Below are positions 9,140-43,549 of a stretch of 47,486 nucleotides of DNA, piece after piece. Origin of the DNA: Macrostomum lignano (Eukaryota); contig NIVC01004390.1 in the NCBI GenBank assembly GCA_002269645.1, positions 1-47,486 on the forward strand. The letters are read 5' to 3'. The position numbers and the translations under genes are program-made. Under the pieces are notes generated by a model. That model had not been told where the DNA came from. It saw only the letters and a list, made by a program, of their open reading frames with translations, and did not search any database. The first letter of the stretch is position 1; the number at the start of each line of letters is the position of its first letter.

Positions 9140-9506
9140 TCAATTGGTTGCCGCACTCTTATTACTATTAGTAGCTGATGCCGACGACACAGGCAGCTGG
9201 GGCGGCGACCTGGGCATTTGAAACCAGTGCATCAGGCCGGCCTGAACCAGATCTTCTTGAACAAATCGCCACTGAGACTGCTGCGGCTCCTTTGTGTACA
9301 GGTAAACGCACGGCTGGTTAACATCGTTAAAGTACACTACCTGGCATTTCACTCGCTTGTTGGTCAAGTAGCCTTGGTGAACGGATCGGCTGATGCTGTC
9401 TAGCTGGACATCCACGTCTGCGGAGCCCGCCGCGGTTGAAATGGCCGGACTGACGTAGGCCAGGTGCGCTTCCACCGCTTGGAATGGCAGGTGCATCATC
9501 TCTGTG
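9140..9506 (-). CDS. AKAP1: AKAP1-like coding exon 4 (C-terminal SN-like half of extended Tudor)
   Basis: ttccag|C ACA GAG: (R)TEMMHLPFQAVEAHLAYVSP...DLVQAGLMHW...stop. Confidence 0.85.
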
Positions 9507-12500
9507 CTGGAATCCAAAGGGGGCTGGATTCTTTAGGTGAGTTTAGGTTGGGGCTGGATTCTTTAGGTGAGTTTAGGTTAGGGCTGGATTCTTTAGGTGA
9601 GTTTAGGTTGGGGCTGGATTCTTTAGGTGAGTTTAGGTTGGGGCTGGATTCTTTAGGTGAGTTTAGGTTGGGGCTGGATTCTTTAGGTGAGTTTAGGTTG
9701 GGGCTGGATTCTTTAGGTGAGTTTAGGTTAGGGCTGGATTCTTTAGGTGAGTTTAGGTTGGGGCTGGATTATTTAGGTAAGTTTAGGTTAGGGCTGGATT
9801 CTTTAGGTGAGTTTAGGTTGGGGCTGGATTCTTTAGGTGAGTTTAGGTTGGGGCTGGATTCTTTAGGTGAGTTTAGGTTGGGGCTGGATTCTTTAGGTGA
9901 GTTTAGGTTGGGGCTGGATTCTTTAGGTGAGTTTAGGTTGGGGCTGGATTCTTTAGGTGAGTTTAGGTTGGGGCTGGATTCTTTAGGTGAGTTTAGGTTG
10001 GGGCTGGATTCTTTAGGTGAGTTTAGGTCGGGGCTGGATTCTTTAGGTGAGTTTAGGTTGGGGCTGGATTCTTTAGGTGAGTTTAGGTTGGGGCTGGATT
10101 CTTTAGGTGAGTTTAGGTTGGGGCTGGATTCTTTAGGTGAGTTTAGGTTGGGGCTGGATTCTTTAGGTGAGTTTAGGTTGGGGCTGGATTCTTTAGGTGA
10201 GTTTAGGTTGGGGCTGGATTCTTTAGGTGAGTTTAGGTTGGGGCTGGATTCTTTAGGTGAGTTTAGGTTGGGGCTGGATTCTTTAGGTAAGTTTAGGTTG
10301 GGGCTGGATTCTTTAGGTGAGTTTAGGTTGGGGTAGGTCATCAGAGTGGATTAAGAGGGTATTCCAAAGGTCGAATAAAAATTGATAATCAAGTCGGAGT
10401 TGAGAGTCGACTCCGGGGTAGATCAAGGTGAGATTTAAACAGTTGGATTGAAAGCCTTTTTTAGAATATGGTCTGAGCATATTCTCAGCCGTGAGCCTTG
10501 GTATCTCAGCAAAATCCCCCCATGAGCCTTGGCATCTCAGCAAAATTCTCCCCATGAGCCTTGGCATCTCAGCACAATTCCCCCATGAGCCTTGGCATCT
10601 CAGCACAATTCCCGCATGAGCCTTGGTATCTCAGCACAATTCCCCCCATGAGCCTTAGTATCTTAGCACAATTCCCCCATGAGCCTTGGTATCTCAGCAC
10701 AATTCCCACCCCCATGAGCCTTGGGATCTCAGCAAAATTCTCCCCGTGAGACTTGGCATCTCAGGTAAATCGCTCCACTAACCGAATCTGCTTCAGACAA
10801 CCAACTGGCATTTTCTCATAGCCGCCCCAGTCCAGGTATTTCATCAGCACCGCGTCCTCCTCGGGAAAGACGTCGGCAATGATGGCCCGATGCCAGCTGT
10901 TGCCGAAGGGGCAATGCAGACGGCTCCAGGATTGACTGGCCGTGGCAGGCAGGGCGGCGGCTGCTGCGGAATCGAACCCGGGCCCACGCCGCCGCCGTAA
11001 TGACGTTTAATAGTGGCGTCCATTTTTTCCAGATGATGAAAACTGGGATGCGTCGGCTGCTGCAGGAATACGGTTGTGCCGCGGGACATTGCGCAGACGG
11101 TTACGTCGATTGTAGCGCCCACCGGCAGGCTTAGCTGTTAGAGGATAAGGGAAATGGATTCTTGGAGGCGGTTCTTGACGGCGATTTTTGGGGAGTTAAG
11201 GGCGATTCTTGAGGGTGATTCTTGACAGCGATTTTTGGGGAGTTGAGGGCGATTCTTGAGGGTGATTTTTGACGGCGATTTTTGGGAAGTTGAGGGCGAT
11301 TCTTGAGGGTGATTCTTGACGGCGATTTTTGGGGAGTTGAGGGCGATTCTTGAGGGTGATTCTTGACGGCGATTTTTGGGGAGTTGAGGGCGATTCTTGA
11401 GGGTGATTCTTGACGGCGATTTTTGGGGAGTTGAGGGCGATTCTTGAGGGTGATTCTTGACGGCGATTTTTGGGGAGTTGAGGGCGATTCTTGAGGGTGA
11501 TTCTTGACGGCGATTTTGGGGAGCTGAGGGCGATTCTTGACGGCGATTTTTGGAGAGTTGACGGCGATTCTTGGGGAGTTAAGGGCGATTCTTGACGGCG
11601 ATTTTTGTAGAGTTGAGGGCGATTCTTGACGGCGATTTTTGTAGAGTTGAGGGCGATTCTTGACGGCGATTTTGGGGAGCTGAGGGCGATTCTTGACGGC
11701 GATTTTTGGAGAGTTGACGGCGATTCTTGGGGAGTTGAGGGCGATTCTTGACGGCGATTTTTGTAGAGTTGAGGGCGATTCTTGACGGCGATTTTTGTAG
11801 AGTTGAGGGCGATTCTTGACGGCGATTTTGGGGAGCTGAGGGCGATTCTTGACGGCGATTTTTGGAGAGTTGACGGCGATTCTTGGGGAGTTGAGGGCGA
11901 TTCTTGACGGCGATTTTTGTAGAGTTGAGGGCGATTCTTGACGGCGATTTTTGTAGAGTTGAGGGCGATTCTGGACGGCGATTTTTGAAGAGTTGAGGGC
12001 GATTATTTGGGAGTTAAGGGAGATTTTTGACGGCGATTTTTAGGGTAAGGGAGTTAAGGGCGATTCTATCAAACTACCGGTAATTTTTTTAAGCTAAAAA
12101 TATTAATTAGATCTTTGGCCCAATTAGGGTCATTCCAATTCTGGAGAATAATTCTTGAGGTCTTTTGACGATACGACGATAGGAATTTACCGAGATCAGT
12201 TTTCGAACAAAATTATCTTATAAAACCACAATTTCTTGGCAACAATGTTTAACTTGAGACTTGAAAACGTAAAACTTGATGAATTACTCATTAACTATAT
12301 ACCCAAATTGACCCTAATATGCGTTGGCTCTCTTTAGCGTTTAGTGTGTTTTAACAATGATTGCAACATCAATGCTAAATTCAAACACCTGGAGGCATGG
12401 GAACGGGTTGGTTGCGAGTAACTCAATGAGTTGCCGGGCAGTGATAGTCGCGCCGCATGCAAGTCTATAGGACTCTAGGTCAATAGAGGGCACACGCGCA

Positions 12501-16545: not shown

Positions 16546-17396
16546 GCCTGTAGCATAAGACAACCTATTTAGCATACACTAATAGGTAATAATCTACTTT
16601 GGTAATAGCCACTTTGGTAACAAATGAGAATAACAGTTGATTTATATGCTCCAAAAATGCACCAATAGACTTAAAAATAATAATAATTGGGATACATTTT
16701 TACTCACTTTAAAAGATTTAGATTGATGTAGAAAACTGCATACTTGCATATGCTTAACTTGTTTAAAAGTGTTTTTACCTATCTAGGCCTATTTTAATTT
16801 TTAGATACCTCAGATACATATACCAAGATATCTTGTAACTGATCAAATTTGATGTGCATTAGATTATCTAAGTTAACAACTTTAAACTATAGAGTCTACT
16901 ATGAGAGTCCCTTTATTAATTACTTCAAGTTTTCAATTCAACATGTCAAAGTAGTTCTTGTTCTCTCTATTTAAATCTCAAACACTGACACCAAAGTTGT
17001 CAAAGGCGTAATTGCTCTTACTGAAATTATCCCACTACTGCAACCAAGTTGTCAAAGGGCTGATTCTTCTGTCTCTTCAAATGATTCCACAGCTGTCACT
17101 AAAGTTGTCAAAGGGCTAAACTCCTGTTTATAAATGTTGGTAGCTGCTACCAAGACTATTCTATTAATAAATTATGAGTTTATTAATCTTAGAATAAGTC
17201 TGAGAATATTTCTTAGAATAGGTCTGAGTATTTAGTCTGAGTATTATTCTTAGAAAACTACTAGCAATCTTCGCCCCCCGTTGGGGGACATCTGTATAGA
17301 ATATCTGCTCTCTACAAGTAACAAAAAGATAGCCAAATAAAGCATTCACAAAGAAAACAGACAAAATACTTAAATGAAGTGCAATGCAAAAAGACA

Positions 17397-17890
17397 GCAA
17401 GCATCCCCCAGATAGCAAGCATCCCCCAGATAGCAAGCATCCCCCAGATAGCAAGCATCCCCCAGATAGCAAGCATCCCCAGATAGCAAGCATCCCCCAG
17501 ATAGCAAGCATCTCCCAGATAGCAAGCATCCCCCAGATAGCAAGCATCCCCCAGATAGCAAGCATCCCCCAGATAGCAAGCATCCCCCAGATAGCAAGCA
17601 TCCCCAGATAGATAGCATCCCCCAAATAGCAAGCATCCCCCAGATAGATAGCATCCCCCAAATAGCAAGCATCCCCCAGATAGCAAGCATCCCCAAGGTA
17701 GCAAGCACCCCCAGATAGCAAGCATCCCCCAGATAGCAAGCACCCCCCAGATAGCAAGGATCCCCCAGAAAGCAAGCATCCCCAAGATAGCAAGCTTCCC
17801 CAGATAGCAAGCATCCCCCAGATAGCAAGCATCTTCCAGAGAGCAAGCTCCCCCAGATAGATAGCATCCCCAAATAGCAAGCATCCACCA
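17397..17890. repeat. 18-bp satellite AGCAAGCATCCCCCAGAT inside Helitron copy 1
   Basis: Directly visible; source of LGDACY-type ORFs. Confidence 0.95.
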
Positions 17891-17984
17891 GACAATAAGT
17901 AGCTAGTGCGACAATTTCCTTAGCATTATAGTGGCTCCTTTAAAATTCGCTTACTTTTACGTTTGAAATTGTGTATCTTTTATG

Positions 17985-19930
17985 TTTGGCATGGTGGCTC
18001 TTTAATGTTTGACATGGTGGCTCTTTTATGTTGACATGGTGGCTCTTTTATACTTGACATGGTGGCTCTTTACTGTTCGAAATGGTGGCTCTTTTATGTT
18101 TGACATGGTGGCTCTTTTAGGTTTGACATGATGGCACTATTATGTTTTGACATAGTGGCTCTTTAATGTTTGACATGGTAGCTCTTAAATGTTTGACATG
18201 GTAGCTCTTTTATGTTTGACATGGTGGCTCTTTATTGTTTGACATGGTGGCTCTTTAATGTTTAACCTGGTGGCTCTTTTATGTTTGACACGGTGGCTTT
18301 TATTGTCTGACATGGTGGCTCTTTTATGTTTTACATGGTGGCTCTTTATTGTTTGACATGGTGGCTCTTTAATGTTTAACCTGGTGGCTCCTTATGTTTG
18401 ACACGGCGGCTCTCTAATGTTTGACATAGTGGCTATTTAATGTTCGAAATGGTGGCTCTTTAAAGTTTGACATAAAGTCACAAATATGTTTGAGATGGTG
18501 GCTCTTAAATGTTTGACATGGTGGCTCTTAAATGTTTGACATGGTGGCTCTTTAATGTTCTTCATGGTGGCTCTTCAATATTCTACATGGTGGCTCTTTT
18601 ATGTTCGACATGGTGGCTTTTTAATGTTTGACATGGTGGCTCTTTTATGTTTGACATGGTGGCTCTTTACTGTTTGAAATGGACAATGGTGGCTCTTTAA
18701 TGTTCTACATGGTAACTCTTTTATGTTTGATACGGTGGCTTTTTAATGTCTGACATGGTGGCTCTTAAATGTTAGACAAAGTGGCTTTTTAATGTTTGAC
18801 ATGGTGGCTCTTTTATGTTTGACATGGTGGCTCTTTACTGTTTGAAATGATGGCTCTTTAATGTTCGAAATGGTGGCTCTTTTATGTTTGACATGGTGGC
18901 TCTTTACTGTTTGAAATGATGGCTCTTTAATGTTCGAAATGGTGGCTCTTTTATGTTTGACATGATGGCACTTTTATGTTTTGACATAGTGGCTCTTTAA
19001 TGTTTGACATGGTAGCTCTTAAATGTTTGACATGGTAGCTCTTAAATGTTTGACATGGTAGCTCTTAAATGTTTGACATGGTAGCTCTTAAATGTTTGAC
19101 ATGGTAGCTCTTTTATGTTCAACATGGTGGCTCTTTATTTTTTGACATGGTGGCTCTTTAATGTTTAACCTGGTGGCTCTTTTATGTTTGACACGGTGGC
19201 TTTTAATGTCTGACATGATGGCATTTTTATGTTTTGACATAGTGGCTCTTTAATGTTTGACATGGTGGCTCTTAAATGTTTAACCTGGTGACTCTTTTAT
19301 GTTTGACATGGCGGCTCTCTAATGTTTGACAAAGTGGCTATTTAATGTTCGAAATGGTGGCTCTTGAAAGTTTGACATAAAGTCACATATATGTTTGAGA
19401 TGGTGGCTCCTAAATGTTTGACATGGTGGCTCTTTACTGTTTGAAATGGTGGCTCTTTAATGTTCTACATGGTAACTCTTTTATGTTCGACATGGTGGCT
19501 TTTTAATGTCTGACATGGTGGCTCCCAAATGTTTGACACGGTGGCTCTTTAATGTTCTTCATGGTGGCTCTTTAATATTCTACATGGTGGCTCTTTTATG
19601 TTTGATACGGTGGCTTTTTAATGTCTGACATGGTGGCTATTTTATGTTTGACATGGTGGCTCTTCTATGTTTAACATGGTGGCTCTTTTATGTTTGACAC
19701 GGTGGCTCTTTAATGTTCGACAAAGTGGCTATTTGATGTTTGATATGGTGACACTTAAATGTTTGACATAAAGTCACATAAATGTTAGACGTGGTGGCTC
19801 GTTTAGTTTTGACATGGTGGCTTTTTAATCGTTGACATGGAGTCACGTATATGTTTGACATAGTGCTTATTTTATGTTTGGCATGGTGGCTCTTTTATGT
19901 TTGACATGGTGGCTCTTCTATGTTTGACAT
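17985..19930. repeat. About 22-23-bp satellite TTTGACATGGTGGCTCTTT(T/A)ATG inside Helitron copy 1
   Basis: Directly visible, degenerate units. Confidence 0.95.
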
Positions 19931-19992
19931 TCCGCTTCTATTATGTTTAGCAGTTTTGTGTTTTTAAGGTGTTTTGATAAAAAAATCTTTTT

Positions 19993-20056
19993 GCACTACT
20001 AAGATTCGAACCCAGGTCGCTACATTAGCATTCCAGTCTGTTTGCATCTTGGCTAT
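19993..20056 (-). other. tRNA-derived / Pol III promoter-like segment inside Helitron copy 1
   Basis: Minus strand TAGCCAAGATG (A-box-like) ... GGTTCGAATC (B box), followed by a T7 run; cloverleaf stems pair poorly. Confidence 0.5.
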
Positions 20057-23000
20057 CTATTTTCAATTGGAGAACATGAATTGTGGCCCTTATAATTCAA
20101 TTCTTACAGCAAGTCAATTGGAGTAAAAAGTTATGACATAATCAATTTCTCAGTCAGCCAGTATCAGTCTCAATTTGAGTTAGCAATATGGTTACGCAAT
20201 TTCATTCAAGTCGTGTGTGCATTTCTTCGGCACTGTTTTCAACTTGTTGTGATGCAATCTTTATCAGAATTGAAATGCAGTCAGTCAGTTTTTTCTCTAG
20301 CATTTTTACAATGCATTTCAGGTCGAAAATTTTGCTTGACCTTTGCAAAAAAGCATGTTTTTCGAATAATTAATCCCTTTAAAATTGAGCAATTTCTTAG
20401 CCAAGATGCATGTACCGTCCCAGGAAAATTTCTGATCGAATGGTGCAAGTTTGAAGAAAATCGGTTGAGCCAATTTTTCTGAAATCTATCGCATACCCAC
20501 AGACAACTCATTTTTAGTATATAGGATTAACCCTGAAAGATTTTACTCCTCTGTTATTCTGGTAGCATTCTATTATTCTGGTAGCATTCTATTTAATAAT
20601 TGGGCCTGAGCGGTATTTTGGCTTACTGGTATGTGTATTTCATGTACTTTGCAAGTCCTTGGGCGTTACCAAGATCAGAGGGTCACAGCCTCCGGTTATT
20701 CTTACACTTATATGTATCATTTCAGATCTACTTCGTATTCTCCTACTACTCAATACTGCTGCTTCTCAATGTACTGTATATGCTTCAGTCTATTTCACTC
20801 TTATTTCGTAAAAGGAATTAACATAGAAAACACTTTTTCAATTCTTATTTTCTTGGAACTCTTACTATTTGCTAACAATCACTTATTGTGGAACCGCGAT
20901 GCGCGAGGTTGGTCTCTTTTCCGCCAAAAACGCTTCTATTTATACTAAAATTTACTGCTAGTTTAAACAAAATTAGTTCACATAAAATATTATGAAAAAT
21001 ATGAGTATTAAAACAAAATATGTTTCTTAGTTTTGGCGTGAATTCAAATTGACTAAACGGTGACTATTTTATAAAGAAATTGGGAGGGGCCCTGCACAAA
21101 CATATAGTCCTTCATTTACTTTTTCGCCTTCAATTTTTTTACAAAGTTAATGTGCATATTTAAACAAATTATAATATAATTAGAAAGCTTAAAAACTAGA
21201 AAGCTTAAAATTTATACTTGAAATTGAATCTTTCAATCTTTTTTCCACTTTATACTAATTATTTCATATGATTTAATGAAGTATACACTAGCATGACTAG
21301 GCCTAGGCCTATGGTTGCATGCATACACACTATTTTTAAGGAGTCAAGCATGCTAATTATGCACATCTAAATTTATTTAGGTGCACAAGGCCAATGCATA
21401 CCCTATTTTTTGGATAAATAGTATATGATCTAGAGTGTCACAGGAATATGGAAGCTACTAAAGCCAAGGGCTAGGCCTATCAAACTAATATAAAGAGACA
21501 AACTAGGCCCTAATATAATAAATTTGAATTTAAATTAAAAAAGAATAGCTAGGCCTAGGTGAAATAAAGTCTACAAGACTCAAGACAATAAGAGTCAAGA
21601 GACAGACAGGCTAAGCCTCTTAGCCTACTTATACTACGAGTAGCCTTAACTATTATATTAAAACAAGGAACAGACTAGCTTTTGTCTTTCAACAAAAGAT
21701 TAGGGGCCTAAATTGGTACAAAATAAAAAATTAACATTGATTGGCACATAGGCTAAAGCAACTTAGGCCTAATGTTGGATCTTAAAAGCAATAAATCTAA
21801 CCTAAGCTAGCCATGGACTAACGCCTTAACCAAAGTCTAAAGCAAAAATATTTTCAAAGACGTGTCAGTTTTTGCGAAATCTTTGGCGCTAGCCCCTAGC
21901 TACTTATTTGACATTTTTGTCCAATTCACATTGTATTCCTTAATTAATAAGTTAACAATGTAGATTAGTACTAGTAGGCCTAAGTAGGCCATGCCAAGGC
22001 TAAGGCCAAGTAGGTCTTAAGCTCACCAAATACTGTTCCAGAAGAATATAACTAAGTTAACTAACTATATAACTAGGCCAAATGAGACTGAGATTTGTCT
22101 TGAAATGCGATTGCGGGGTGTACAATGTGGATCTTGAACAAGAGGACGAATATGACAATGAATAATCCGGTAATCGCAAAATAGTAGCAAACTGGACCAA
22201 AATGAATCGTAAGTAAAACTAGTTGCATTTTATAAACATTTTCCAACGAGCTACGCTTCCTAAAAATAAGTTAACAAGCAAATTTTTACAACCAAAGGAC
22301 GTCGAGCCTAAGTAATCCGAGCAACATATTTGCAGGAAATTTAGGCATAGTGATTAGAGGATTACCGAATGGTCGGATAACACTAATTTTCAAAAATTTT
22401 AGAGTCCACACCAGAGGACCACTATATAACTTGTATGTAACTCCAAATTAGATTAAGTACCGCGCTAGTTTGCTGAAGTAGGCAGATTTTTCTAATCTTT
22501 CTTTCCTACTATACTGAGCGCATTTCACTTAGGTTTACTAAACACGAACATGCAAGGCCACATGATTCATATCCCATGAGATGAGATGATTATTCATCAA
22601 ATTCACGTCTCGGCCGATATAATTTACGGTGACATATGTACCTACATGTACAGTAGCTGCTGCGGAAGAATAGAGCTGAAATAACTCAAAGCTCAAGGAT
22701 TAGCATATCTGCGGTGCAAAATAGTCAGTAGCTAGTGTCTTCAGCATCAAAATGTCTTTCGATGCGCCACAGTGCTGAATTTCCACTGCAGCTAATTCGC
22801 TTTGGAAGGGCCGCGGTAGCAGCGTGACTATACTGTATGTATGTACACGTACAGTACATGGTTAATCAAAACCTGACCTGTGCCAGTTGTTTCTCAAATA
22901 CACTGTCCAAAAAGCGGCCGTCCTTCCTCGAATCCGCTGCGCGGCCCATCGGCTAAACACACGCTGTAGTCCTGTGAAGTTTTTCCCGACTCTATGCACC

Positions 23001-23221
23001 TAGCCTACTACGGCTTGAAACAGTGCAATTAAAGCTGATGACTTTGATCTGTCTCTTACAGCAGGGCGCCCTATAGCCCTGTCTCTTGGTGAGCGCCCCT
23101 GTCTCTTGGTGCAGAGCACCCGTCTCTTGGTGATCGCGCCCCTGGCTTTTGGTGGGCAGCTGCCCTGTCTCTCTTGGTGGGCGCCTTCTCTCTTGGCGGG
23201 CGCCCCTGTCTCTTACATGTA

Positions 23222-23832
23222 TACGAGAGTTTACACCCAGAAACAACATGCTTGCCAGTGAGCAATTTCTTTTGGGCTATTCTGAAATAAAAGATACGAG
23301 AAAACTGGGTAGCTTTAATCCGTCCAACTCTCGCAAACCGCGCTCCCCTACCACCATGGTGGGGTCGTCTAATGTCACTATCTAATCATTATCTATCACT
23401 ATCTTCTATCTATCACCTATCTCTATCTATCATCGATCATCTATCTATATCTATCATCTAACATCTATCTCTATCTATCATCTATCTATATCTATCGATG
23501 ATCTATCTCTATATATCATCTATCATCTATCTATCATCTATCATCTATCTATCATCTATCATCTATCTATCTATCATCTATCACTATCTATCTATCTATC
23601 ACTATATCACTATCAATGTCACTAGCTAATGTCACTATCTAATAATGTCACTATCCGTCCAACCCTCGCACACCAGTGATTTTCACCAGTTTTTCACCAG
23701 TGGTGGGGGAGCGCGGTGTGCGAGGGTTCGACGGATTAAAGCTACCCAGTTTTCTCGTATCTTTTATTTCAGAATAGCCCAAAAGAAATTGCTCACTGGC
23801 AAACATGTTGTTTCTGGGTGTAAACTTTCATA
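23222..23832. mobile_element. Fold-back MITE with TA target duplication (Tc1/mariner-type), internal (TATC)n
   Basis: Inverted arms of about 140 bp (23222-23360 and 23700-23832); empty site reconstructs as ACATG-TA-CATGT. Confidence 0.8.
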
Positions 23833-24509
23833 TACATGTTGACATGTAGATACATGTAAGTTAAGTCACTCGCAAAGATTGAGAGACTTTACCTGAACTC
23901 TCAAAAGTGGCGAACACAGATGAAATTGGAATTTTTGTAGACCGTGTCTACTGCGGAAGAAAGATAGAGGCTCCGAAAGAGCCCGTTGCTTCTATATTCT
24001 ATATTTAGCCAACAACAAAGACCCTCGAGGGTCTCAGATCATACATGTACGCAAAGAAAAAGGGGCAAAGGGAAAGGAAGGAACGAACAAGCAAGCACAG
24101 GGTGACGCATCGAGACAAAGAACATTCCTACCCCACTTCCCCTCAGCCCCTCTCACACAACACAACTACACTGTACGTCATCACAGGAATCTTCTGTGAT
24201 GGCGACATTTCGATGTTGCTTAGTATATATGTAAATGTCACGCGTTCATACTAAATTTTTAGTAGTATCATCACGAAAACAGTGAATGACTACTCCATTG
24301 TGCCAAAAAACGGGTTCTCACAACATCTAATTTTATTACTTCCAGATTAGTGATGAGGACGCACTTTTTCAAACTTCACGCTCGCACATGGGCTCCAAAC
24401 TTACTAGCCTACTGACAGCAGTCTATGGGTATTTTTTCTTCTCTTTATGCAATTTTCCTAGAATTCATACTAGTTATATGATTTTGCCATACTTGTAGTT
24501 ATAATAACA

Positions 24510-25075: not shown

Positions 25076-26571
25076 GGCCCACTCGGACTTTAAATTCCTG
25101 CTCCGCCTCCTGGGACTTTGGCCTAACTTAGACCTCCCGGAGCTCGACCGTCGTCTCTTGATTCCCGGATCGCGACCTTCCCCCATCATCATCAAGGACG
25201 ATCAAGGACCCCCCGGTCGTCAGCAGCGAACATCAAGATTAAGAACATCACCTGCTGCTAGCTATCTGCGAAGATTGTGACATCAGCATCATCCCGGGTG
25301 TACAGCTGCGAAGCACTAAGCCGATTCGGTCACTGTGGATTACCTGGTCCCCGGCTGTTGAGTTTCTGATTGGTTGGGTGAGAGGCCACCTAGACTTGCT
25401 TTATTGGGTGATCCCTTATCTGTCCCCTATTTCAGTAGCTGGATTAGGCGCACACTTTTGCTCATTTTGTTCAGTAGTGCTGTTGCTGAGGCAGAAATCA
25501 TTCAATAATACTGCTAGTAGTCTAAGACTCCAATTCAATCTGAAGTGTGAAGTGATCTGAGGAGAAGGTTAAATCTGACAGTTATTTTTATCGGTTTTAT
25601 TTCTTTGTTCGCCGATGGCTCAGATGAATAGCTATGCTAGTAGGCGCCGGTTACAGTGGACCAATGGCAAGGCAGTTCTCAGTCGATCAAATCTATCAAA
25701 TCAGTTAGCAAAATTGCCAATAGTGCAAAATCGGCGCTATAGAGATGTACTCTGTGCACTCTAGATTCGCCAAGAGGCTCGGGTAATGAATCATGCGGCC
25801 TCTGAAGTTCGAGTTAGCCTATCATCAGCGCTACGAGAGGCTGGTTGGCGCGTTGAATGAAGGCCAAAAGTACAATTCCTCGTATTTAGCAATGTAATAG
25901 TACATGTAGCTACCCCATAGTCTCGCCACTGCAAGAATCCCCTGCACAAGTCCCATCTGTACCTGCATGGCCAATGCGATCAAGTCCCAGCAGTGTCCCT
26001 TAAAATCGGCTATGATTTCGAGATTGACAGCAAAAAGACACTAGTTGGCAGGTAAGTGCAAAGCCCCCTCTAGTCGGAAGCCCGATTTCGAAAGTTCCGG
26101 TTTGGTGAGCCAGGACGTACGGGCTGGTGGCAGCGGGTTAGTTAATCTGTGGATTAGCTGATCTCTACCTTCAAAATTCTCCCTGCTTGTCTCTCGCTGT
26201 CCCTCTCTTAGCTAAGGACCTAGACTGCTTGCCACACGATCAAGCTACCATGGGGCTGACCATCTGACAGGAGTTGGGGGGCCAGGACTCTAATTGATTT
26301 ATTTCTGAGACCTGAGGCCCGAAGGCTTCCCGAAAGGGGCCGAAAAGGCCGAAACCCATCATTAGTAAAAATACTTAACTGAAAATTACCCAAGGTGCCA
26401 CCCTTTCTATTCAGTGATTCAGTGTGCTAAAGCGAACTCTTATTGTTAAACAGACCAACAAATGTTTTTTCCTGTCACAACAGGTCCAGCTTTTTCCTTT
26501 ATTGGTACTGTATTTCGATAGTCAGGGTGCCAAAAGTCGTACAGACCGCGGCAGACTTAAATTGAGGAATG

Positions 26572-26680
26572 AAGTGGGGGAGCGGTGTGCGAGGGTTGGA
26601 CGGATTAAAACTACCCCGATCAGTTTTCTCGTATCTTTTAGTTCAGAACAGTCCAAGAGGAATATTGCTCACTGGCGCAT
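26572..26680. mobile_element. Diverged solo arm of the 23222-23832 MITE family
   Basis: GGGGGAGCG..GTGTGCGAGGGTTGGACGGATTAAA..CAGTTTTCTCGTATCTTTTA..ATTGCTCACTGGC matches 23705-23800. Confidence 0.75.
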
Positions 26681-35579: not shown

Positions 35580-37002
35580 TGCTGTTAATGAAGTTGTTGT
35601 CTGTGGTGACTGTTGTTAATGAAGTTATTGTCTGTGGTGACTGTTGTTAATGAAGTTATTGTCTGTGGTGACTGTTGTTAATGAAGTTGTTGTCTGTGGT
35701 GACTGTTGTTAATGAAGTTATTGTCTGTGGTGACTGTTGTTAATGAAGTTGTTGTCTGTGGTGACTGTTGTTAATGAAGTTATTGTCTGTGGTGACTGTT
35801 GTTAATGAAGTTATTGTCTGTGGTGACTGTTGTTAATGAAGTTGTTGTCTGTGGTGACTGTTGTTAATGAAGTTATTGTCTGTGGTGACTGTTGTTAATG
35901 AAGTTGTTGTCTGTGGTGACTGTTGTTAATGAAGTTATTGTCTGTGGTGACTGTTGTTAATGAAGTTATTGTCTGTGGTGACTGTTGTTAATGAAGTTAT
36001 TGTCTGTGGTGACTGTTGTTAATGAAGTTATTGTCTGTGGTGACTGTTGTTAATGAAGTTATTGTCTGTGGTGACTGTTGTTAATGAAGTTATTGTCTGT
36101 GGTGACTGTTGTTAATGAAGTTATTGTCTGTGGTGACTGTTGTTAATGAAGTTATTGTCTGTGGTGACTGTTGTTAATGAAGTTATTGTCTGTGGTGACT
36201 GTTGTTAATGAAGTTGTTGTCTGTGGTGACTGTTGTTAATGAAGTTATTGTCTGTGGTGACTGTTGTTAATGAAGTTATTGTCTGTGGTGACTGTTGTTA
36301 ATGAAGTTATTGTCTGTGGTGACTGTTGTTAATGAAGTTATTGTCTGTGGTGACTGTTGTTAATGAAGTTGTTGTCTGTGGTGACTGTTGTTAATGAAGT
36401 TATTGTCTGTGGTGACTGTTGTTAATGAAGTTGTTGTCTGTGGTGACTGTTGTTAATGAAGTTATTGTCTGTGGTGACTGTTGTTAATGAAGTTATTGTC
36501 TGTGGTGACTGTTGTTAATGAAGTTATTGTCTGTGGTGACTGTTGTTAATGAAGTTATTGTCTGTGGTGACTGTTGTTAATGAAGTTATTGTCTGTGGTG
36601 ACTGTTGTTAATGAAGTTATTGTCTGTGGTGACTGTTGTTAATGAAGTTATTGTCTGTGGTGACTGTTGTTAATGAAGTTATTGTCTGTGGTGACTGTTG
36701 TTAATGAAGTTATTGTCTGTGGTGACTGTTGTTAATGAAGTTATTGTCTGTGGTGACTGTTGTTAATGAAGCTATTGTCTGTGGTGACTGTTGTTAATGA
36801 AGCTATTGTCTGTGGTGACTGTTGTTAATGAAGTTGTTGTCTGTGGTGACTGTTGTTAATGAAGTTATTGTCTGTGGTGACTGTTGTTAATGAAGTTATT
36901 GTCTGTGGTGACTGTTGTTAATGAAGCTATTGTCTGTGGTGACTGTTGTTAATGAAGCTATTGTCTGTGGTGACTGTTGTTAATGAAGTTGTTGTCTGTG
37001 GT
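35580..37002. repeat. 31-bp minisatellite GTCTGTGGTGACTGTTGTTAATGAAGTTATT
   Basis: Directly visible; ends abruptly at CACAG (37003). Confidence 0.98.
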
Positions 37003-37918
37003 CACAGCGCGCAGGAGCTGCGTGTAAGGGTTAAAAAAATCTAGTACAAAGCGACCTGCTTTATTGTGTTCACCATTACTTGGTAAGTATTTTTCTAGAG
37101 TTTTTAAAAAATCTGCCGATGTCAAGCTCCACAATCAGTAAATTATTCAATTAGCATTAATTGCATGGCGAAAGGTCTAAACAAGTCATGATTTTTAACC
37201 AAGGACCATTGATTTTTTAAATTAAAGGCAAAATACACACCCATGAGTGCGTACCCCCAAGCCCCAAGGCACAGTGTACATGCATGACGAATTGCGAAAG
37301 CTGAGGCGCCATACACCCCTAAGTGCGCATGATCAACCTCTATCAGTGTAGGGTCAGTTGCGTCACCGAAAAAATGAAGTGCATTTAGCGTCACTCTCTG
37401 ACAGGCAGATTTTTTGTTTTTGAGCTATATAAATGATTAATTTAGCATAAATCAGCTCATCTCAGCATTTAGGAATTGAAAAGCCTTGAACTGAACACCA
37501 CCATGCCAAACTACTCAAAATCTCACGAAGAGAACCAGCTGAAGGTCTGCCTTGTGTGCTTTAAGCGCGGGTCAGGCATGCAGCGCATTGACAAAGCAGC
37601 TCTACCTCGCATCCAGCGGTACTTTTATGCAAACTACGATTTGAAGAACGAGTTTCTCCCAGCTGCTCTGTGTGCTCGATGCCAGGGTCTGCTGCTGGAT
37701 ATTGAACGGGGGAATCGAACTTCTGAAGCTCTTCCTGCCCCTTTTGATTTTTCAAAAGTCGTACCGACAAAGGAAACAAGGGGCCACCCGAAGTGCAGCT
37801 GCTGTCTCTGTGAGATTGCCAGAGAAAGTCCAATCGGCAAAGGACTCGGCACCTGGAAGCCGGAGCCGCATCGCCTTGGCAGACCGAAAACCGATTCGCC
37901 AAACAAGGAGGTGCCACC
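37003..37918 (+). mobile_element. 5' part of a Chapaev/CMC-like DNA transposon
   Basis: Sharp junction with CACAG at 37003 (CAC termini typify CMC/Transib elements), followed by a Cys/His-rich transposase-like N-terminus. Confidence 0.55.
37503..37918 (+). pseudogene. Interrupted transposase N-terminus with Chapa-type zinc finger
   Basis: MPNYSKSHEENQLKVCLVC (H-x7-C-x2-C) ... YDLKNEFLPAALCARC ... CSCCLCEIAR; cut at an AGTAGT junction. Confidence 0.6.
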
Positions 37919-38081
37919 AGTAGTATATAAAACTAGCAATCTTCGCCCCCCGATGGGGGACATCTGGATAGAATCTCTGTTCTCTACAAGTAACAAAAAG
38001 ACAGCCAGAAAATCCTTCACAAAGACAACAGACAAACTGCTCAAATGAAGTGAATTGCAATAAGAAATCTTCCCAAGACCA

Positions 38082-38706
38082 CAAGCATCCCCCAGATAGC
38101 AAGCATTCCCCAGATAGCAAGCATCCCTCAAATAGCAAGCATCCCCCAGATAGCAAGCATCCCCCAGATAGCAAGCATCCCCCAGATAGCAAGCATCCCC
38201 CAGATAGCAAACATCCCCCAGATAGCAAGCATCCCCCAGATAGCAAGCATTCCCCAGATAGCAAACATTCCCAGATAGCAAGCATTCCCCAGATAGCAAG
38301 CATCCCTCAGATAGCAAGCATACCCCAAATAGCAAGCATCCCTCAGATAGCAAGCATCCCTCAGATAGCAAGCATCCCCCAGATAGCAAGCATCACTCAG
38401 ATAGCAAGCATCCCTCAGATAGCAAGCATCCACCAGATAGCAAGCATCCCTCAGATAGCAAGCATCCCCCAAATTGCAAGCATCGCCCAGATAGCAAGCA
38501 TCCCCCAGAAAGCAAGCATCCTCCAAATAGCAAGCATCCCCCAGATAGCAAGCATCACTCAGATAGCAAGCATCCCTCAGATAGCAAGCATCCACCAGAT
38601 AGCAAGCATCCCTCAGATAGCAAGCATCCCCCAAATTGCAAGCATCGCCCAGATAGCAAGCATCCCCCAGAAGGCAAGCATCCCCCAAATAGCAACCATC
38701 CACCAG
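38082..38706. repeat. 18-bp satellite inside Helitron copy 2
   Basis: Same unit as 17397-17890. Confidence 0.95.
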
Positions 38707-38804
38707 ACAAAAAGTAGCTAGAGCGACAATTTCCTTAGCTTTATAGTGGCTCCTTTAAATTGGCATGGCGCTTTATACCTTTACATTTGAAATTGTATAT
38801 CTTG

Positions 38805-40865
38805 AATGTTTGACATGGTGGCTCTTTTATGTTTGACATGGTGGCTCTTTATTGTTCGACATGGTGGCTTTTTTATGTTTGACATGGTGGCTCTTGTATG
38901 TTCGACATGGTGGCTCTTTTAATGGTCGACATGGTGGCTCTTTAATGTTCTTCATGTTGGCTCTTTTATGTTTGACATGCTGGCTTTTTTATGTTTGACA
39001 TGGTGGCTCTTTTATGTTCGACATGGTGGCTCTTTTATGTTCTACATGGCTGCTCTTTTATGTTCGACATGGTGGCTCTTGTATGTTCGACATGGTCGCT
39101 CTTTTGGGTTTGAAATGGTGGCTCTTTAATATTTGACAAGGTGGCCCTTTAATGTTTAACATGGTGGCTCTTTAAATTTCGAAATGGTGGCTCCTTAATT
39201 TTCGAAATGGTGGCTGTTTTATGTTTGACATGGTGGCTCTTTAATGTTCGACATGGTGGCTCTTTAATGTTCTTAATGGTGTCTGTTTTATGTTTGACAT
39301 GGTGGCTCTTTATTGTTCGACATGGTGGCTCTTTAATTTTCGAAATGGTGGCTGTTTTATGTTTGACATGGTGGCTCTTTAATATTTGACAAGGTGGCCC
39401 TTTAATGTTTAACATGGTGGCTCTTTAATTTTCGAAATGGTGGCTCCTTAATTTTCGAAATGGTGGCTCTTTTATGTTTGACATGGTGGCTCTTTAATGT
39501 TTGACATGGTGGCTCTTTAATGTTCGACATGGTGGCTCTTTAATGTTCTTAATGGTGTCTGTTTTATGTTCGACATGGTGGCTCTTTTATGTTCGACATG
39601 GTGGCTCTTTAATGTTCGACATGGTGGCTCATTTAGGTTTGAAATGGTGGCTCTTTAATGTTTGACATTGTGGCTCTTTAATATTTGACAAGGTGGCTCT
39701 TTAATGTTCGACATGGTGGCTTCTTAATTTTCGAAATGGTGGCTCCTTAATTTTCGAAATGGTGGCTGCTTTATGTTTGACATGGTGGCTCTTTAATGTT
39801 TGACATGGTAACTCTTTTATGTTTGATATGGTGGCTCTTTTATGTTCGACATGGTGGCTCTTTAATGTTCGACATGGTGGCTCCTTTAGGTTTGAAATGG
39901 TGGCTCTTTAATGTTTGACATTGTGGCTCTTTTATGTTCGACATGGTGGCTCTTTTAGGTTTGACATGGTGACTCTTAAATGTTTGACATGGTGGCTCTT
40001 TAATGTTTCACATGGTGGCTCTTTAATATTTGACATAAAGTCACATATATGTTTGACATGGTGGCTCCTAAATGTTTGACATGGTGGCTCTTTAATGTTC
40101 GACATGGTGGCTCCTTAATTTTCGAAATGGTGGCTCATTAATTTTCGAAATGGTGGCTGCTTTATGTTTGACATGGTGGCTCTTTAATGTTTGACATGGT
40201 AACTCTTTTATGTTTGATATGGTGGCTCTTTTATGTTCGACATGGTGGCTCTTTAATGTTCGACATGGTGGCTCCTTTAGGTTTGAAATGGTGGCTCTTT
40301 AATGTTTGACATTGTGGCTCTTTTATGTTCGACATGGTGGCTCTTTTAGGTTTGACATGGTGACTCTTAAATGTTTGACATGGTGGCTCTTTAATGTTTC
40401 ACATGGTGGCTCTTTAATATTTGACATAAAGTCACATATATGTTTGACATGGTGGCTTCTAAATGTTTGACATGGTGGCTCTTTATGTTTGACATGGTGG
40501 CTCTTTTATGTTCGACATGGTGGATCTTTTTTGTTCTACATGGTAACTCTTTTATGTTTGATACGGTGGCTTTTGAATGTCTGACATGTTGGCTCTTTTA
40601 TGTTTGACATGGTGGCTCTTAATTGTTTGACATAGTGGCTCTTTAATGTTCAAAATGGTGGCTCTTTAATGTTCGAAATGGTGGCTCTTTAATGTTCGAA
40701 ATGGTGGCTGTTTTATGTTTGACATGGTGGCTCTTTTATGTTTGACATGGTGGCTCTTTAATGTTCGACATGGTAGCTCTTTAATGTTCGACATGGTAGC
40801 TCTTTTATGTTTGACATGGTAACTCTTTTATGTTCGATATGTTGGCTCTTCTATGTTTGACATTG
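38805..40865. repeat. About 22-23-bp satellite inside Helitron copy 2
   Basis: Same unit as 17985-19930, with different variant blocks. Confidence 0.95.
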
Positions 40866-40928
40866 CGCTTCTTTGATGTTTAGCAGTTTTGTTGTGTTTT
40901 TAAGGTGTTTTAATAAAAAAATCTTTTT

Positions 40929-40992
40929 GCACTACTATGATTCGAACCCAGGTCGCTACATTAGCATTCCAGTCTGTTCGCATCAGGGCTAT
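40929..40992 (-). other. tRNA-derived / Pol III promoter-like segment inside Helitron copy 2
   Basis: GGTTCGAATC B box retained, followed by an oligo-T run on the minus strand. Confidence 0.5.
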
Positions 40993-42145
40993 CTCTTTTC
41001 AATTGGAGAACATGAATTGTGGCCCTTATAATTCAATTCTTACAGCAAGTCAATTGGAGTAAAAAGTTATGACATAATCAATTTCTCAGTCAGCCAGTAT
41101 CAGTCTCAATTTAAGTTAGCAATATGGTTACGCAATTTAAATCAAGTCGTGTGTGCATTTCTTCGGTACTGTTTTCAACTTGTTGTGATGCAATCTTTAT
41201 CACAATCGGAATTCAGTCAGTCAGTTTTTTCTCTAGCATTCTTACAATGCATTTCAGGTCGAAAGAGCTGCTTGACCTTTGCAAAAAAGCATGTTTTTCG
41301 AATATTTAATCCCTTTAAAATTGAGCAATTTCTTAGCCAAGATGCATGTACCGTCCCAGGAAAATTTCTGATCGAATAATGCAAGTTTGAAGAAAATCGG
41401 TTGAGCCATTTTTTCTGAAATCTATCGCATACCTACCTACCTACCTACCCACAGACAACTCATTTTTAGTATATAGGAAGACGCTTCTAGACCCAGAGCA
41501 CTTTTTTAATGACCGTTTTAAGGGTCTAGAGGGGGGACACGGGGGGTAAATAAAAAAACACATCTAAACACCATTAATACATCTAATCACCCATAATCAC
41601 CCCTAACAATAAAAATCATTCCCAACACTTCCAAACACTCCCCAACACCCCCCTCGCGTCCCCCCTCTTAAGACCTTAAAAACGGCCATTAAAATAAGGT
41701 CTGATCTGTAAGCGTCTTTTTCTATACTACTACTCTATAACCCCTTGCCCGCGCCGCAGGCGCGAAGGGTCACAAAAGAGTTTAAACTGAGTCATGGTAA
41801 TAGTAACACTCAACAAAAAATTACTCTCATAGCCACTATTGGCTAGCTTGCAAAATCTTGCCGTAGCAGGAATTGAACGCCCACTCAGCCATCCAACTCT
41901 ATAAAAACCACAGCCATCAACCCAGTTCTAGCTCATCTCTCAGGAAGAAGAAGACAGGCTCCGCGCGTCACAAGTAAAATGGGGTGCCCACCATCAATGA
42001 ATAAGTTTTTAACAAATCGTCCAGAAAAATTCTGGACGTCCAGAAAAAAATGACTCAATGCAGTATATACACCATCTTGGGTTGAAAAATATTCTTTTGT
42101 GTGTTCTCGTATTCTTTTTTTCTGTTACTAAAAATAGAACAAAAA

Positions 42146-42544
42146 ATGACACACGTTACACATGTGCAAAATATAAATGAGTATCAGGTAGGAGATCCAA
42201 TTGAATACCGAGGTGAGGGACTTTTTGATTTGGTTGGAACAGCAGCAAATTTTGTTAAAGACAATATGGGGCTTATAGGGCAAGCTGGCTCTGCAGCAGG
42301 CTCTATAACAAATGCTGTAAAAGGAGGAATTGAAGCAGCTAGAGCGGCAGAAGAACTAAAGAAATTGAGAGATTTTAACGACACCCTCTCACAAATAAAT
42401 GCAATAAAAGATTTAAAGCTGGCACAAGCCGCACAACCAACAGAAACCCCCACGAAAACCACGCCAATAAGTAATAAAGATATTCAGGATTTTAATAAAA
42501 TGTTAAATACTATTAAAGGTGGAAAAGGATTAAAGAAATTTTAA
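42146..42544 (+). CDS. Polinton ORF A, 132 aa, putative virion core / protein-VI-like amphipathic precursor
   Basis: YRGEG-LFDLVGTAANFVKDNMGLIGQAGSAAGSITNAVKGG amphipathic segment; C-terminal IKGGKGLKKF. Confidence 0.65.
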   Translation: MTHVTHVQNINEYQVGDPIEYRGEGLFDLVGTAANFVKDNMGLIGQAGSAAGSITNAVKGGIEAARAAEELKKLRDFNDTLSQINAIKDLKLAQAAQPTETPTKTTPISNKDIQDFNKMLNTIKGGKGLKKF

Positions 42545-42554
42545 CAATATAAAA

Positions 42555-43549
42555 ATGGACTCAGTTAATGATGATGAAAACCGGTTATATTTTATAGGAG
42601 AAATTGTAGATACCTTAAATCTTGATGATAATAAGCAAACCCACACAATGTTAAAAAGATTGGATCGATTAGGTAAAAAGTTTGACTACGACATCGATAC
42701 ATTTAAACTCGCAGCAAAATATGCACAAGAAGGAAGGCCAATATCCTTTAAGAATCGCGGCAGAAATTATAGGTTGACAGACTCCGATGTGAAATTTTTA
42801 ATGGAGACTCACACTAAAAAGGACGGCGGATTACTACCCATTCTACCGCTTCTTTTAGGACTTGGCGCAGCTGGAGCAGTCGGTTTAGCCGGAAAAAGAA
42901 TTCATGATAATGTAAAACAGCTAGGAGAGTTAAGAGCGAAACAGGGGGGAATCTTACCCTTGCAGCTTTGCTCCCAATAATTTTTGCAGGAATTGGAGCA
43001 GCTGGAGGAGTTGCTGGCGGAGCAGCTGGAATTGCAAAAGCAGTAAATGACAAAAAAGCTGCGGACGAAAAAGCTAAAAGAGAGGCCGAATTTCAAAGAC
43101 AGCAAATAACGCAGGACGCACAATTTAAACAAAAACTTATCGATACAATTAATAGTAGTTCAGCAACAGCCGAGCAAAAAAGAAATGCAGAAGCTAGGTT
43201 ATCAGCTGGAAAAGGTTTACTCTTGCAAGGAACAAATCACGGGAATGGTTTGGTACTAAAAGGAACAACCCAAGGAAGCGGAGTTGTCGCAGATAAACTA
43301 CATGAATTTGGCCAAACTTTAGAAAAAACGGGTGAGAAAGCTAAAGGATTTTTTGACAATATTGGATCCAATTTTAGACCGGCTGTTCAGAAGATTTTTA
43401 CTAAGTTAGGAAAAGATTTTAATATCATTGAAAAACACGACGGAAGCGGATTATATCTCGAAATGCGACCAAAAGCAGGTTCAGGAATTTTCTTAAATTC
43501 AAACGTTATGGGCAATGGATTGCTATTACCAAAAGCAGATCTCGAATAG
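42555..43549 (+). CDS. Polinton ORF B, about 331 aa after a 1-nt correction, pX-like core polyprotein
   Basis: ORFs 42555..42980 and 42968..43549 fuse with one base added at 42957-42961 (GGILPLAALLPIIFAGIGAAGGVAGGAAGIAKAV); repeated GxG(L/I/V) motifs. Confidence 0.7.

Follow-up and report, generated by a model that had tools for sequence, protein, structure and literature searches.

What directs a Helitron to its target beyond the dinucleotide A^T is an open question. We describe a locus of Macrostomum lignano, a stretch of 47,486 nucleotides (assembly GCA_002269645.1, contig NIVC01004390.1, positions 1 to 47,486; hereafter the window), in which a non-autonomous Helitron interrupts the terminal inverted repeat (TIR) of a Polinton that itself lies within the transposase gene of a Chapaev-like DNA transposon. 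Nested insertion as such is ordinary, and the nest alone would matter little. It offers, however, both the filled and the empty sites of one locus in a single assembly, and the one-sided target rule described below (T directly behind the Helitron and CTA a short distance on) addresses the question of target choice. Our reading, to which we assign a probability of roughly 60%, is that three young elements inserted here in turn and that the Helitron site was likely chosen by reading targets that resemble the element's own 5' end.

Structure of the nested locus

The locus is a three-level nest. On the forward strand, the left TIR of the Chapaev-like transposon of 3.37 kb (37003-37220; 218 bp, beginning with CACAG) is followed by the 5' part of its transposase gene (37503-37918; about 139 codons, with a Cys/His zinc-finger N-terminus). 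The Polinton target site duplication (TSD), GCCACC, occupies 37913-37918, and the true Polinton terminus, the outer 14 bp of its TIR, reads AGTAGTATATAAAA at 37919-37932. Then comes the Helitron on the reverse strand (37933-41478; 3,546 bp), and the other 293 bp of the Polinton TIR resume on the forward strand with AGACGCTT (41479-41771). The Chapaev-like transposon is in turn hosted by a 31-bp satellite array (35583-37002, no strand assigned), a fourth, outer level, and this array picks up again beyond the right end of the transposon in contig C1766.

Contig C1767, a second copy of the locus, follows the unique stretches of the window collinearly from 106 to 47485, at an identity of mostly 98-100%, and agrees with it at 930 of 930 bases over 37003-37932. 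In this copy, the Polinton end is unbroken and both Helitrons of the window are absent. C1767 may represent either the other allele of the locus or a copy from a subgenome; M. lignano is described as a recent polyploid with three subgenomes (PMC10733133). The opposite end was found in contigs C1766 and C4812, in each of which the other Polinton TIR is followed by a second GCCACC and then by the remaining transposon. Uninterrupted Chapaev-like copies could be read at the insertion point in six of eight cases, and all six match the far flank beyond GCCACC.

A first-pass annotation, made from the letters of the window alone, had proposed this nest and its insertion order, with a true left end of the Polinton at 37919 and a TSD of about 6 bp. 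It had further predicted a far end consisting of TIR, GCCACC and the rest of the transposase, and uninterrupted copies elsewhere of both the joined terminus and the Chapaev-like transposon. All its coordinates proved exact. The nest and the order are confirmed by the unbroken, Helitron-free Polinton end in C1767, the left end by unbroken TIR copies elsewhere, and the TSD by GCCACC on both sides of the element as well as by duplications of 6 bp in six of six Polinton end pairs tested. C1766 and C4812 bear out the far end, the six readable transposon copies supply the intact sites, and the uninterrupted terminus returned 239 exact matches genome-wide (reversed control: 0), about two per TIR.

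The empty site, the far end, the TSD and the Helitron ends shared among many copies are the grounds on which we judge the order of insertion and the youth of the elements. The Chapaev-like transposon came first, a Polinton of about 18 kb then entered its transposase gene under duplication of 6 bp, and the non-autonomous Helitron finally inserted 14 bp inside the Polinton end, in one of the two locus copies.

The Helitron and its family

The Helitron at 37933-41478 begins with TC at 41478 and closes with a GC hairpin and CTAG (37933-37959). It has no TIRs, is non-coding and contains tandem arrays of 18- and 23-bp units. A second Helitron of the same family lies on the reverse strand at 17261-20526; its empty site in C1767 reads A^T, with CTA at +8. 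No TSD accompanies either insertion, both empty sites having been read in C1767, and the junction of the first is T^T. The ends of the family are shared identically by many copies, with at least 525 exact 3' ends and 1,672-2,312 candidates. Moreover, partner elements of 9-10 kb on C296 and C853, which contain introns and possess the same two ends, encode RepHel (PF14214 above cut-off). Judged by their ends, the window Helitrons are classified as non-autonomous members of the canonical type, HLE1, the definitions of HLE1 and HLE2 being those of PMC11417382. An intronless RepHel family appears to be HLE2-like. With Helraiser and canonical Helitrons in general the window elements share the 5' TC, the 3' hairpin with CTAG, the lack of a TSD and the invariable T on the 3' side (PMC4778049; PMC5876387).

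A one-sided target rule

We read the 3' flanks of 90 of the 525 exact Helitron 3' ends, drawn from the first 100 in the list. In 29 of the 90, the copy lies directly before the 5' end of another Helitron; 61 do not, leaving 59 after removal of duplicates. All 59 of these unique non-tandem flanks have T at +1, and in 49 of them a CTA starts between +6 and +11, compared to 11.9% of 1,945 control T sites located farther along the same flanks (binomial p about 1e-35). Shuffles that kept the composition gave a mean of 8.1 and a maximum of 18 such flanks in 2,000 rounds. Among all 64 trinucleotides CTA is the most enriched, and its commonest spacing is +8. When all loci gathered were taken together, the first set included, CTA was present in 63 of 75, at +7 to +9 in 54, and the base after it was A or T in 59 of the 63. 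The bias is one-sided, since CTA was found in 2 of 23 5' flanks; the 5' flank base of the non-tandem copies was A in 12, T in 9 and C in 2 of the 23.

Because some flanks could be 5' ends of other families, all flanks starting with TC were dropped in a stricter filter, after which CTA was still found in 32 of 41, against 11.8%. In sister families, whose 3' hairpins differ, the counts were 22 of 26 unfiltered and 8 of 10, against 6.3%, after the TC filter. On these counts, a split T...CTA target rule is statistically firm in this genome and extends the published asymmetry of Helitron targets.

These data also bear on the simplest account of the nest, namely that an abundant Helitron family happened to strike an AT-rich Polinton end and that the CTA bias derives from AT-richness or from decayed Helitron ends. 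The family is very abundant, as its exact 3' ends show, the Polinton insertion is a single event, and several of the "non-tandem" flanks do resemble 5' ends of other families. But the bias persists in the face of composition-keeping shuffles, lies on one side only and is seen at each of the two window insertions, whose empty sites are proven. Above all, it survives the removal of TC-starting flanks, which weakens the chance account to the point that we regard it as quite improbable.

Targets and the Helitron 5' end

At its own start, the Helitron has T at +1 and CTA at +10. Read on the Helitron strand, where it forms the 3' target flank, the Polinton terminus likewise has T at +1 and CTA at +10, and it matches the first 12 nt of the Helitron at 10 positions, a score above that of all 59 flanks and reached by 0.1% of the controls. 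Polinton ends carry this pattern by construction, because the bottom strand of their AGT repeat has CTA, preceded by a run of T. The neighbours in the tandem arrays that we inspected come from different subfamilies, and serial insertion before resident 5' ends therefore fits these arrays better than simple multimers. We propose that the Helitron transposase would read its targets in the same way as its own 5' end; RepHel supplied by the 9-10-kb partner family would nick the target by means of its 5'-end-binding surface.

Tandem arrays of Helitrons are usually attributed to rolling-circle replication (PMC5876387; PMC12001565), and target-directed insertion is offered here as a source of them besides rolling-circle multimers. 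In one such array (C853:12272-41097), three RepHel-coding Helitrons of 9-10 kb stand in direct tandem, and the outer target has CTA at +9. Other arrays (L349-L353) combine differing Helitron subfamilies, with insertions inside existing Helitron ends or within about 15 nt of them.

Several observations weigh against the proposal that targets are read like the 5' end. Over 12 nt, the non-tandem targets are hardly closer to the 5' end than the controls (4.5 vs 4.0), and their modal CTA spacing is +8 as opposed to +10 in the element's own start, so that the shared signal is reduced to T plus CTA(A/T). Every canonical family examined has CTA in the 5' end and CTAG at the 3' end, which makes reading by a protein indistinguishable from pairing between TAG and CTA; no family whose 5' end lacks CTA was found, the ends being definable in two of five other RepHel families. 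The sites come from copies fixed in the genome and not from de novo insertions, and the mixed tandem arrays could be composites spread by read-through. The junction is T^T and not the canonical A^T, and 9 of the 23 non-tandem 5' flanks end in T. Finally, a Helitron hotspot in Polinton ends was not borne out: of three matches to the junction pattern, which was limited to the motif of this TIR subfamily, one is a Polinton end, and the other two represent an unrelated duplicated site. As a rough estimate made post hoc, the chance of one such Polinton-end insertion under the CTA rule alone is a few percent.

The TAG-CTA relationship suggests a different mechanism, in which the 3'-terminal TAG of the Helitron would pair with the target CTA, leaving about 6-10 nt between them as a loop, in a guide-like step resembling that of the IS200/IS605 HUH transposases, and in which the likeness to the 5' end would come from nothing more than this pairing at the junction of the circle. 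The terminal TAG is exactly complementary to CTA, the spacing is flexible (+7 to +11) with a peak at +8, and beyond T and CTA there is little likeness to the 5' end, all of which favours pairing. Yet only three base pairs would form, the A or T that comes next (59/63) is as in the 5' end yet unable to pair with the C of the element, and insertions before full 5' ends are in strong excess (29/90). We consider base pairing an unlikely basis of target choice.

In the HUH transposons IS91 and IS200/IS605, the target is a short motif akin to the end of the element itself. These systems are prokaryotic and use contiguous tetranucleotides, whereas the motif described here comes in two parts and is frequent in the genome. 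Res-site hunters of the Tn5053 family, like the Helitron of the window, insert into the working end of another element, but they are prokaryotic and specified by resolvase, unlike the split, genome-common Helitron motif (PMC11296320). Helraiser prefers A^T within AT-rich sequence, most strongly on the 3' flank, with TT as a minor target (PMC4778049). In M. lignano, by comparison, the 5' base is relaxed and a specific CTA triplet at +7 to +11, mirroring the element's own start, is added, a motif that goes unmentioned in the available parts of the Helraiser and Helitron reports (PMC4778049; PMC5876387). Insertions of Xuan-Feng in wheat are described, in the portion of that paper at hand, only as AT (PMC13286980). 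For barley Helitrons, a preference for AAA 8 bp downstream has been reported, which its authors call the first asymmetric target of a transposable element (PMC5738225). The barley motif is AAA as against CTA(A/T) here, and the accessible text does not connect it with the Helitron's own 5' end, with mixed tandem stacks or with the termini of other elements (PMC5738225). No statement tying a CTA rule to the Helitron 5' end was found in the literature on Helitron targets, although other key papers may state parts of it. A very young family with a coding partner and a sharp T...CTA rule makes target choice directly assayable.

An inverted copy of the terminus within the Polinton TIR

The first-pass annotation had compared the joined terminus with the reverse complement of 41710-41734 and did not recognise the latter as an internal repeat of the TIR. 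This stretch is not the opposite Polinton end: it is internal to TIR copies and belongs to an inverted copy inside a TIR of 307 bp. The inverted copy (41650-41734, reverse strand) repeats the first ~82 bp of the TIR with 68 of 82 positions identical, and its first 27 nt co-vary with the terminus. An inner GC-rich hairpin on the forward strand (41735-41771), the 19-nt core of which has 292 genome matches with at most one mismatch, closes the TIR.

The length of the TIR follows from a search with 41479-41980, in which 40 of 252 candidate copies were scored: 20 match about 500 bases and 20 match only bases 1-293, and the point at which the second class stops, added to the outer 14 bp, gives 307 bp. 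In all 28 other TIR copies read (30 loci, minus the window itself, L001, and L020), AGTAGTATA(G/T)AAAA directly precedes the stretch that begins at 41479 in the window. An origin of the 14-mer AGTAGTATATAAAA from the transposase or from the Helitron was rejected. The segment 37919-41734 without the Helitron is not a 270-bp MITE (a miniature transposable element with inverted repeats) either, as no TSD follows 41734 and the same layout lies inside 48 of 48 TIRs.

Among 24 distinct pairs of terminus and internal copy, 25.3 of 27 nt agree on average, compared to 22.2 with shuffled partners (0 of 5,000 shuffles); the pairs were drawn from 79 loci, some of them overlapping, and are akin to each other, so that this significance is overstated. 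Several TIR subfamilies show identical multi-base changes in the terminus and in the internal copy. At locus L338 (C925), the internal and terminal arms are the same at 76 of 77 nt; L339, L340, L344 and L348 diverge after position 34, and the tract in L338 is likely a conversion event. At L029 (C2245, ~9253-9578), the terminus carries 19 additional nt that are complementary to the stretch immediately inward of the internal copy, the expected outcome of fold-back and extension of a 3' end. The TIR strand is predicted to fold stably (-68.8 kcal/mol, z -11.7).

One explanation of these data is that the displaced strand folds back and its terminus pairs with the internal copy; this would restore a duplex origin locally and make both copies uniform by template switching. 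The agreement of the 24 pairs above the shuffled level, the tract in L338, the extension in L029 and the predicted fold all point this way. Alternatively, the internal copy would be an additional, inverted box bound by polymerase or integrase, and selection alone would keep the two alike. The fold-back account is weakened by the kinship of the pairs, which inflates the shuffle test, and by mismatches at up to 3 of 27 positions in the window's own TIR family. Furthermore, a second TIR clade (L312, L329, L332, L335, L337-L344, L348) has the same inner GC hairpin with a different terminal box, and in 11 of its 13 members the internal copy begins at position 9-11, without the AGT repeat, and hence does not act generally as a template of the tip. 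Adenovirus origins have a doubled triplet first and then a polymerase-binding box from about position 9. The spacer orientation is uniform in all 48 TIRs examined, without a single flip-flop isomer, which also speaks against fold-back; we consider this account to be at even odds.

Flip-flop of the TIR spacer in the manner of parvoviruses was rejected on the same count (0/48), and 88 matches that had suggested a flipped spacer proved, except for L029, to represent a frequent variant of the internal copy. The co-varying internal copy is a real, little-described feature of the TIR; no mention of one was found in the literature on Polinton ends, a survey that left the original Polinton papers and Repbase uncovered. 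It provides a handle on the replication of Polinton ends, hitherto treated mostly by analogy to adenovirus.

Combining both lines, we tentatively suggest that canonical Helitron transposases pick copies of their own origin, recognised as T plus CTA about one helical turn on. Helitrons would then build mixed stacks, find built-in landing pads in the AGT-repeat ends of Polintons and be origin hunters of these endogenous viruses, and the co-evolving inverted spare in the TIR would permit fold-back re-initiation or repair of such ends.

The Polinton and the effect of the insertion

Protein-primed DNA polymerase B is detected in two frames of the window (PF03175 above cut-off), the rve integrase on a far-end contig (E 1.8e-7, slightly below cut-off) and a Pox_A32 packaging ATPase above cut-off. 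A 490-aa open reading frame (ORF) resembles viral clusters in which a minority of members carry jelly-roll capsid families, which we take as a lead only. For protease and minor capsid there was no Pfam match among the Polinton proteins searched. Three small ORFs follow the TIR on the forward strand (42086-43549), the last of which has a weak match to adenovirus protein X, below cut-off. In other contigs, paired TIRs lie 17.7-18.3 kb apart. By its polymerase, rve integrase, 307-bp TIR and 6-bp TSD the element is identified as a Polinton/Maverick. It shares with these elements protein-primed polymerase, rve integrase, A32-type ATPase, a putative capsid-like gene and a size of about 18 kb (10.1101/2023.08.22.554363; PMC6431247). 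Its TIR lies within the range of 100-1500 bp and its TSD within that of 5-8 bp. It differs in that each TIR carries an inverted, co-evolving copy of its own terminus.

The Helitron separates the terminal 14 bp from the remaining TIR and probably weakens this end as an origin or integrase site. Did it immobilise an otherwise intact Polinton? The polymerase is fragmented in all three contigs covering it. Across 2,834 alignment columns there are 38 indel events, all of 1-2 nt and each private to one of the three contigs. Gap openings climb toward the contig end (3, 6, 6 and 25 per 1.5 kb) and number 0 in three flanking stretches tested, and pairwise BLAST between the contigs shows 0-2 mismatches per 1.5 kb. 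Four public runs, each from another study and pooling many family copies, disagree with the window at 12 of 12 listed indel rows out of 33. Decay of the gene as the cause of these small private indels is thus unsupported; the frameshifts are probably assembly errors, and the Polinton may therefore have been intact. This agrees with immobilisation by the Helitron, as do the two TIRs of the locus, identical save for one gap, and the size of an insert that adds 3.5 kb and parts the TIR from its outer 14 bp. On the other hand, the AGT repeats of the terminus and the TSD have been retained, the Helitron-free copy likewise remains at the locus, one far-end contig (C4812) has a separate insertion in the integrase frame, and repair could draw on the other TIR as its template, as in adenovirus panhandle repair. 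That the Helitron is what immobilised the Polinton seems rather doubtful to us.

The separate insertion (C4812:18783-20636; L060/L061) is a hAT-like, non-coding element of 1.85 kb with an 8-bp TSD, TCTGGTTC, and is absent from C1766. It sits in the last codons of the integrase frame and is unphased with the window, the substitutions being too few. A 682-aa Polinton ORF (L061:7184-9229) has an F5/8 type C (discoidin) domain and internal repeats and is possibly a fibre-like gene. Irregular Polinton ends were seen in C87 (L297-L300), where four TIRs with one common inner flank lie in a single contig, and in C904 (L356) and C23 (L354), with tandem partial TIR duplications and a TIR without its outer 7 bp.

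The Chapaev-like transposon

Uninterrupted copies of the outer element measure 3.33-3.38 kb, with TIRs of 218 bp and a single frame of 702 aa. At this site the duplication is GGT only (37000-37002), that is 3 bp; across copies, the TSD is 4 bp in three of seven, 5 bp in one and ambiguous in three. Chapaev elements have a TSD of 4 bp and Chapaev3 elements one of 3 bp. Sequence searches of Pfam and PDB with the transposase gave no match, and its 18 homologues found are all unnamed or hypothetical. A relative with 98% identity bears the label Macrostomum lignano at its source. A structural model of the 702-aa protein (mean predicted local distance difference test score, pLDDT, 79) has RAG1 (E 1.2e-13), RAGL and HzTransib as its top Foldseek matches, which indicates that the core is related to the RAG1/Transib DDE fold. 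The residues H8, C16, C19, C57, C60, H95 and C98-C103 fit the Chapa zinc-finger spacing in 2 of 19 proteins. We call the element Chapaev-like, a tentative assignment from the model and the N-terminal Cys/His finger. It resembles Chapaev transposons in a candidate N-terminal Cys/His zinc finger before a RAG1/Transib-fold core, in TIRs ending in CAC...GTG and, in several copies, in a 4-bp TSD (PMC4411706; 10.64898/2026.01.24.700457). Unlike in Chapaev, the TSD length varies here between copies. In C4812, the right terminus of the element is missing its outer ~10 bp.

Further features of the window

Positions 1-37002 of the window consist mostly of short tandem arrays with periods of 4 to 47 bp, several of which are longer in one locus copy than in the other or occur in only one of them. 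C1767 has, at about 25870-26200 (matching window position 20560), a MITE-like insertion of about 300 bp with inverted ends and an 8-bp duplication that is absent from the window, so that both locus copies have acquired private insertions. In the window itself, 147-bp inverted repeats (94%) flank a simple-repeat core at 23215-23839, and a related, shorter copy lies at 26574-26676; these probably represent a MITE family.

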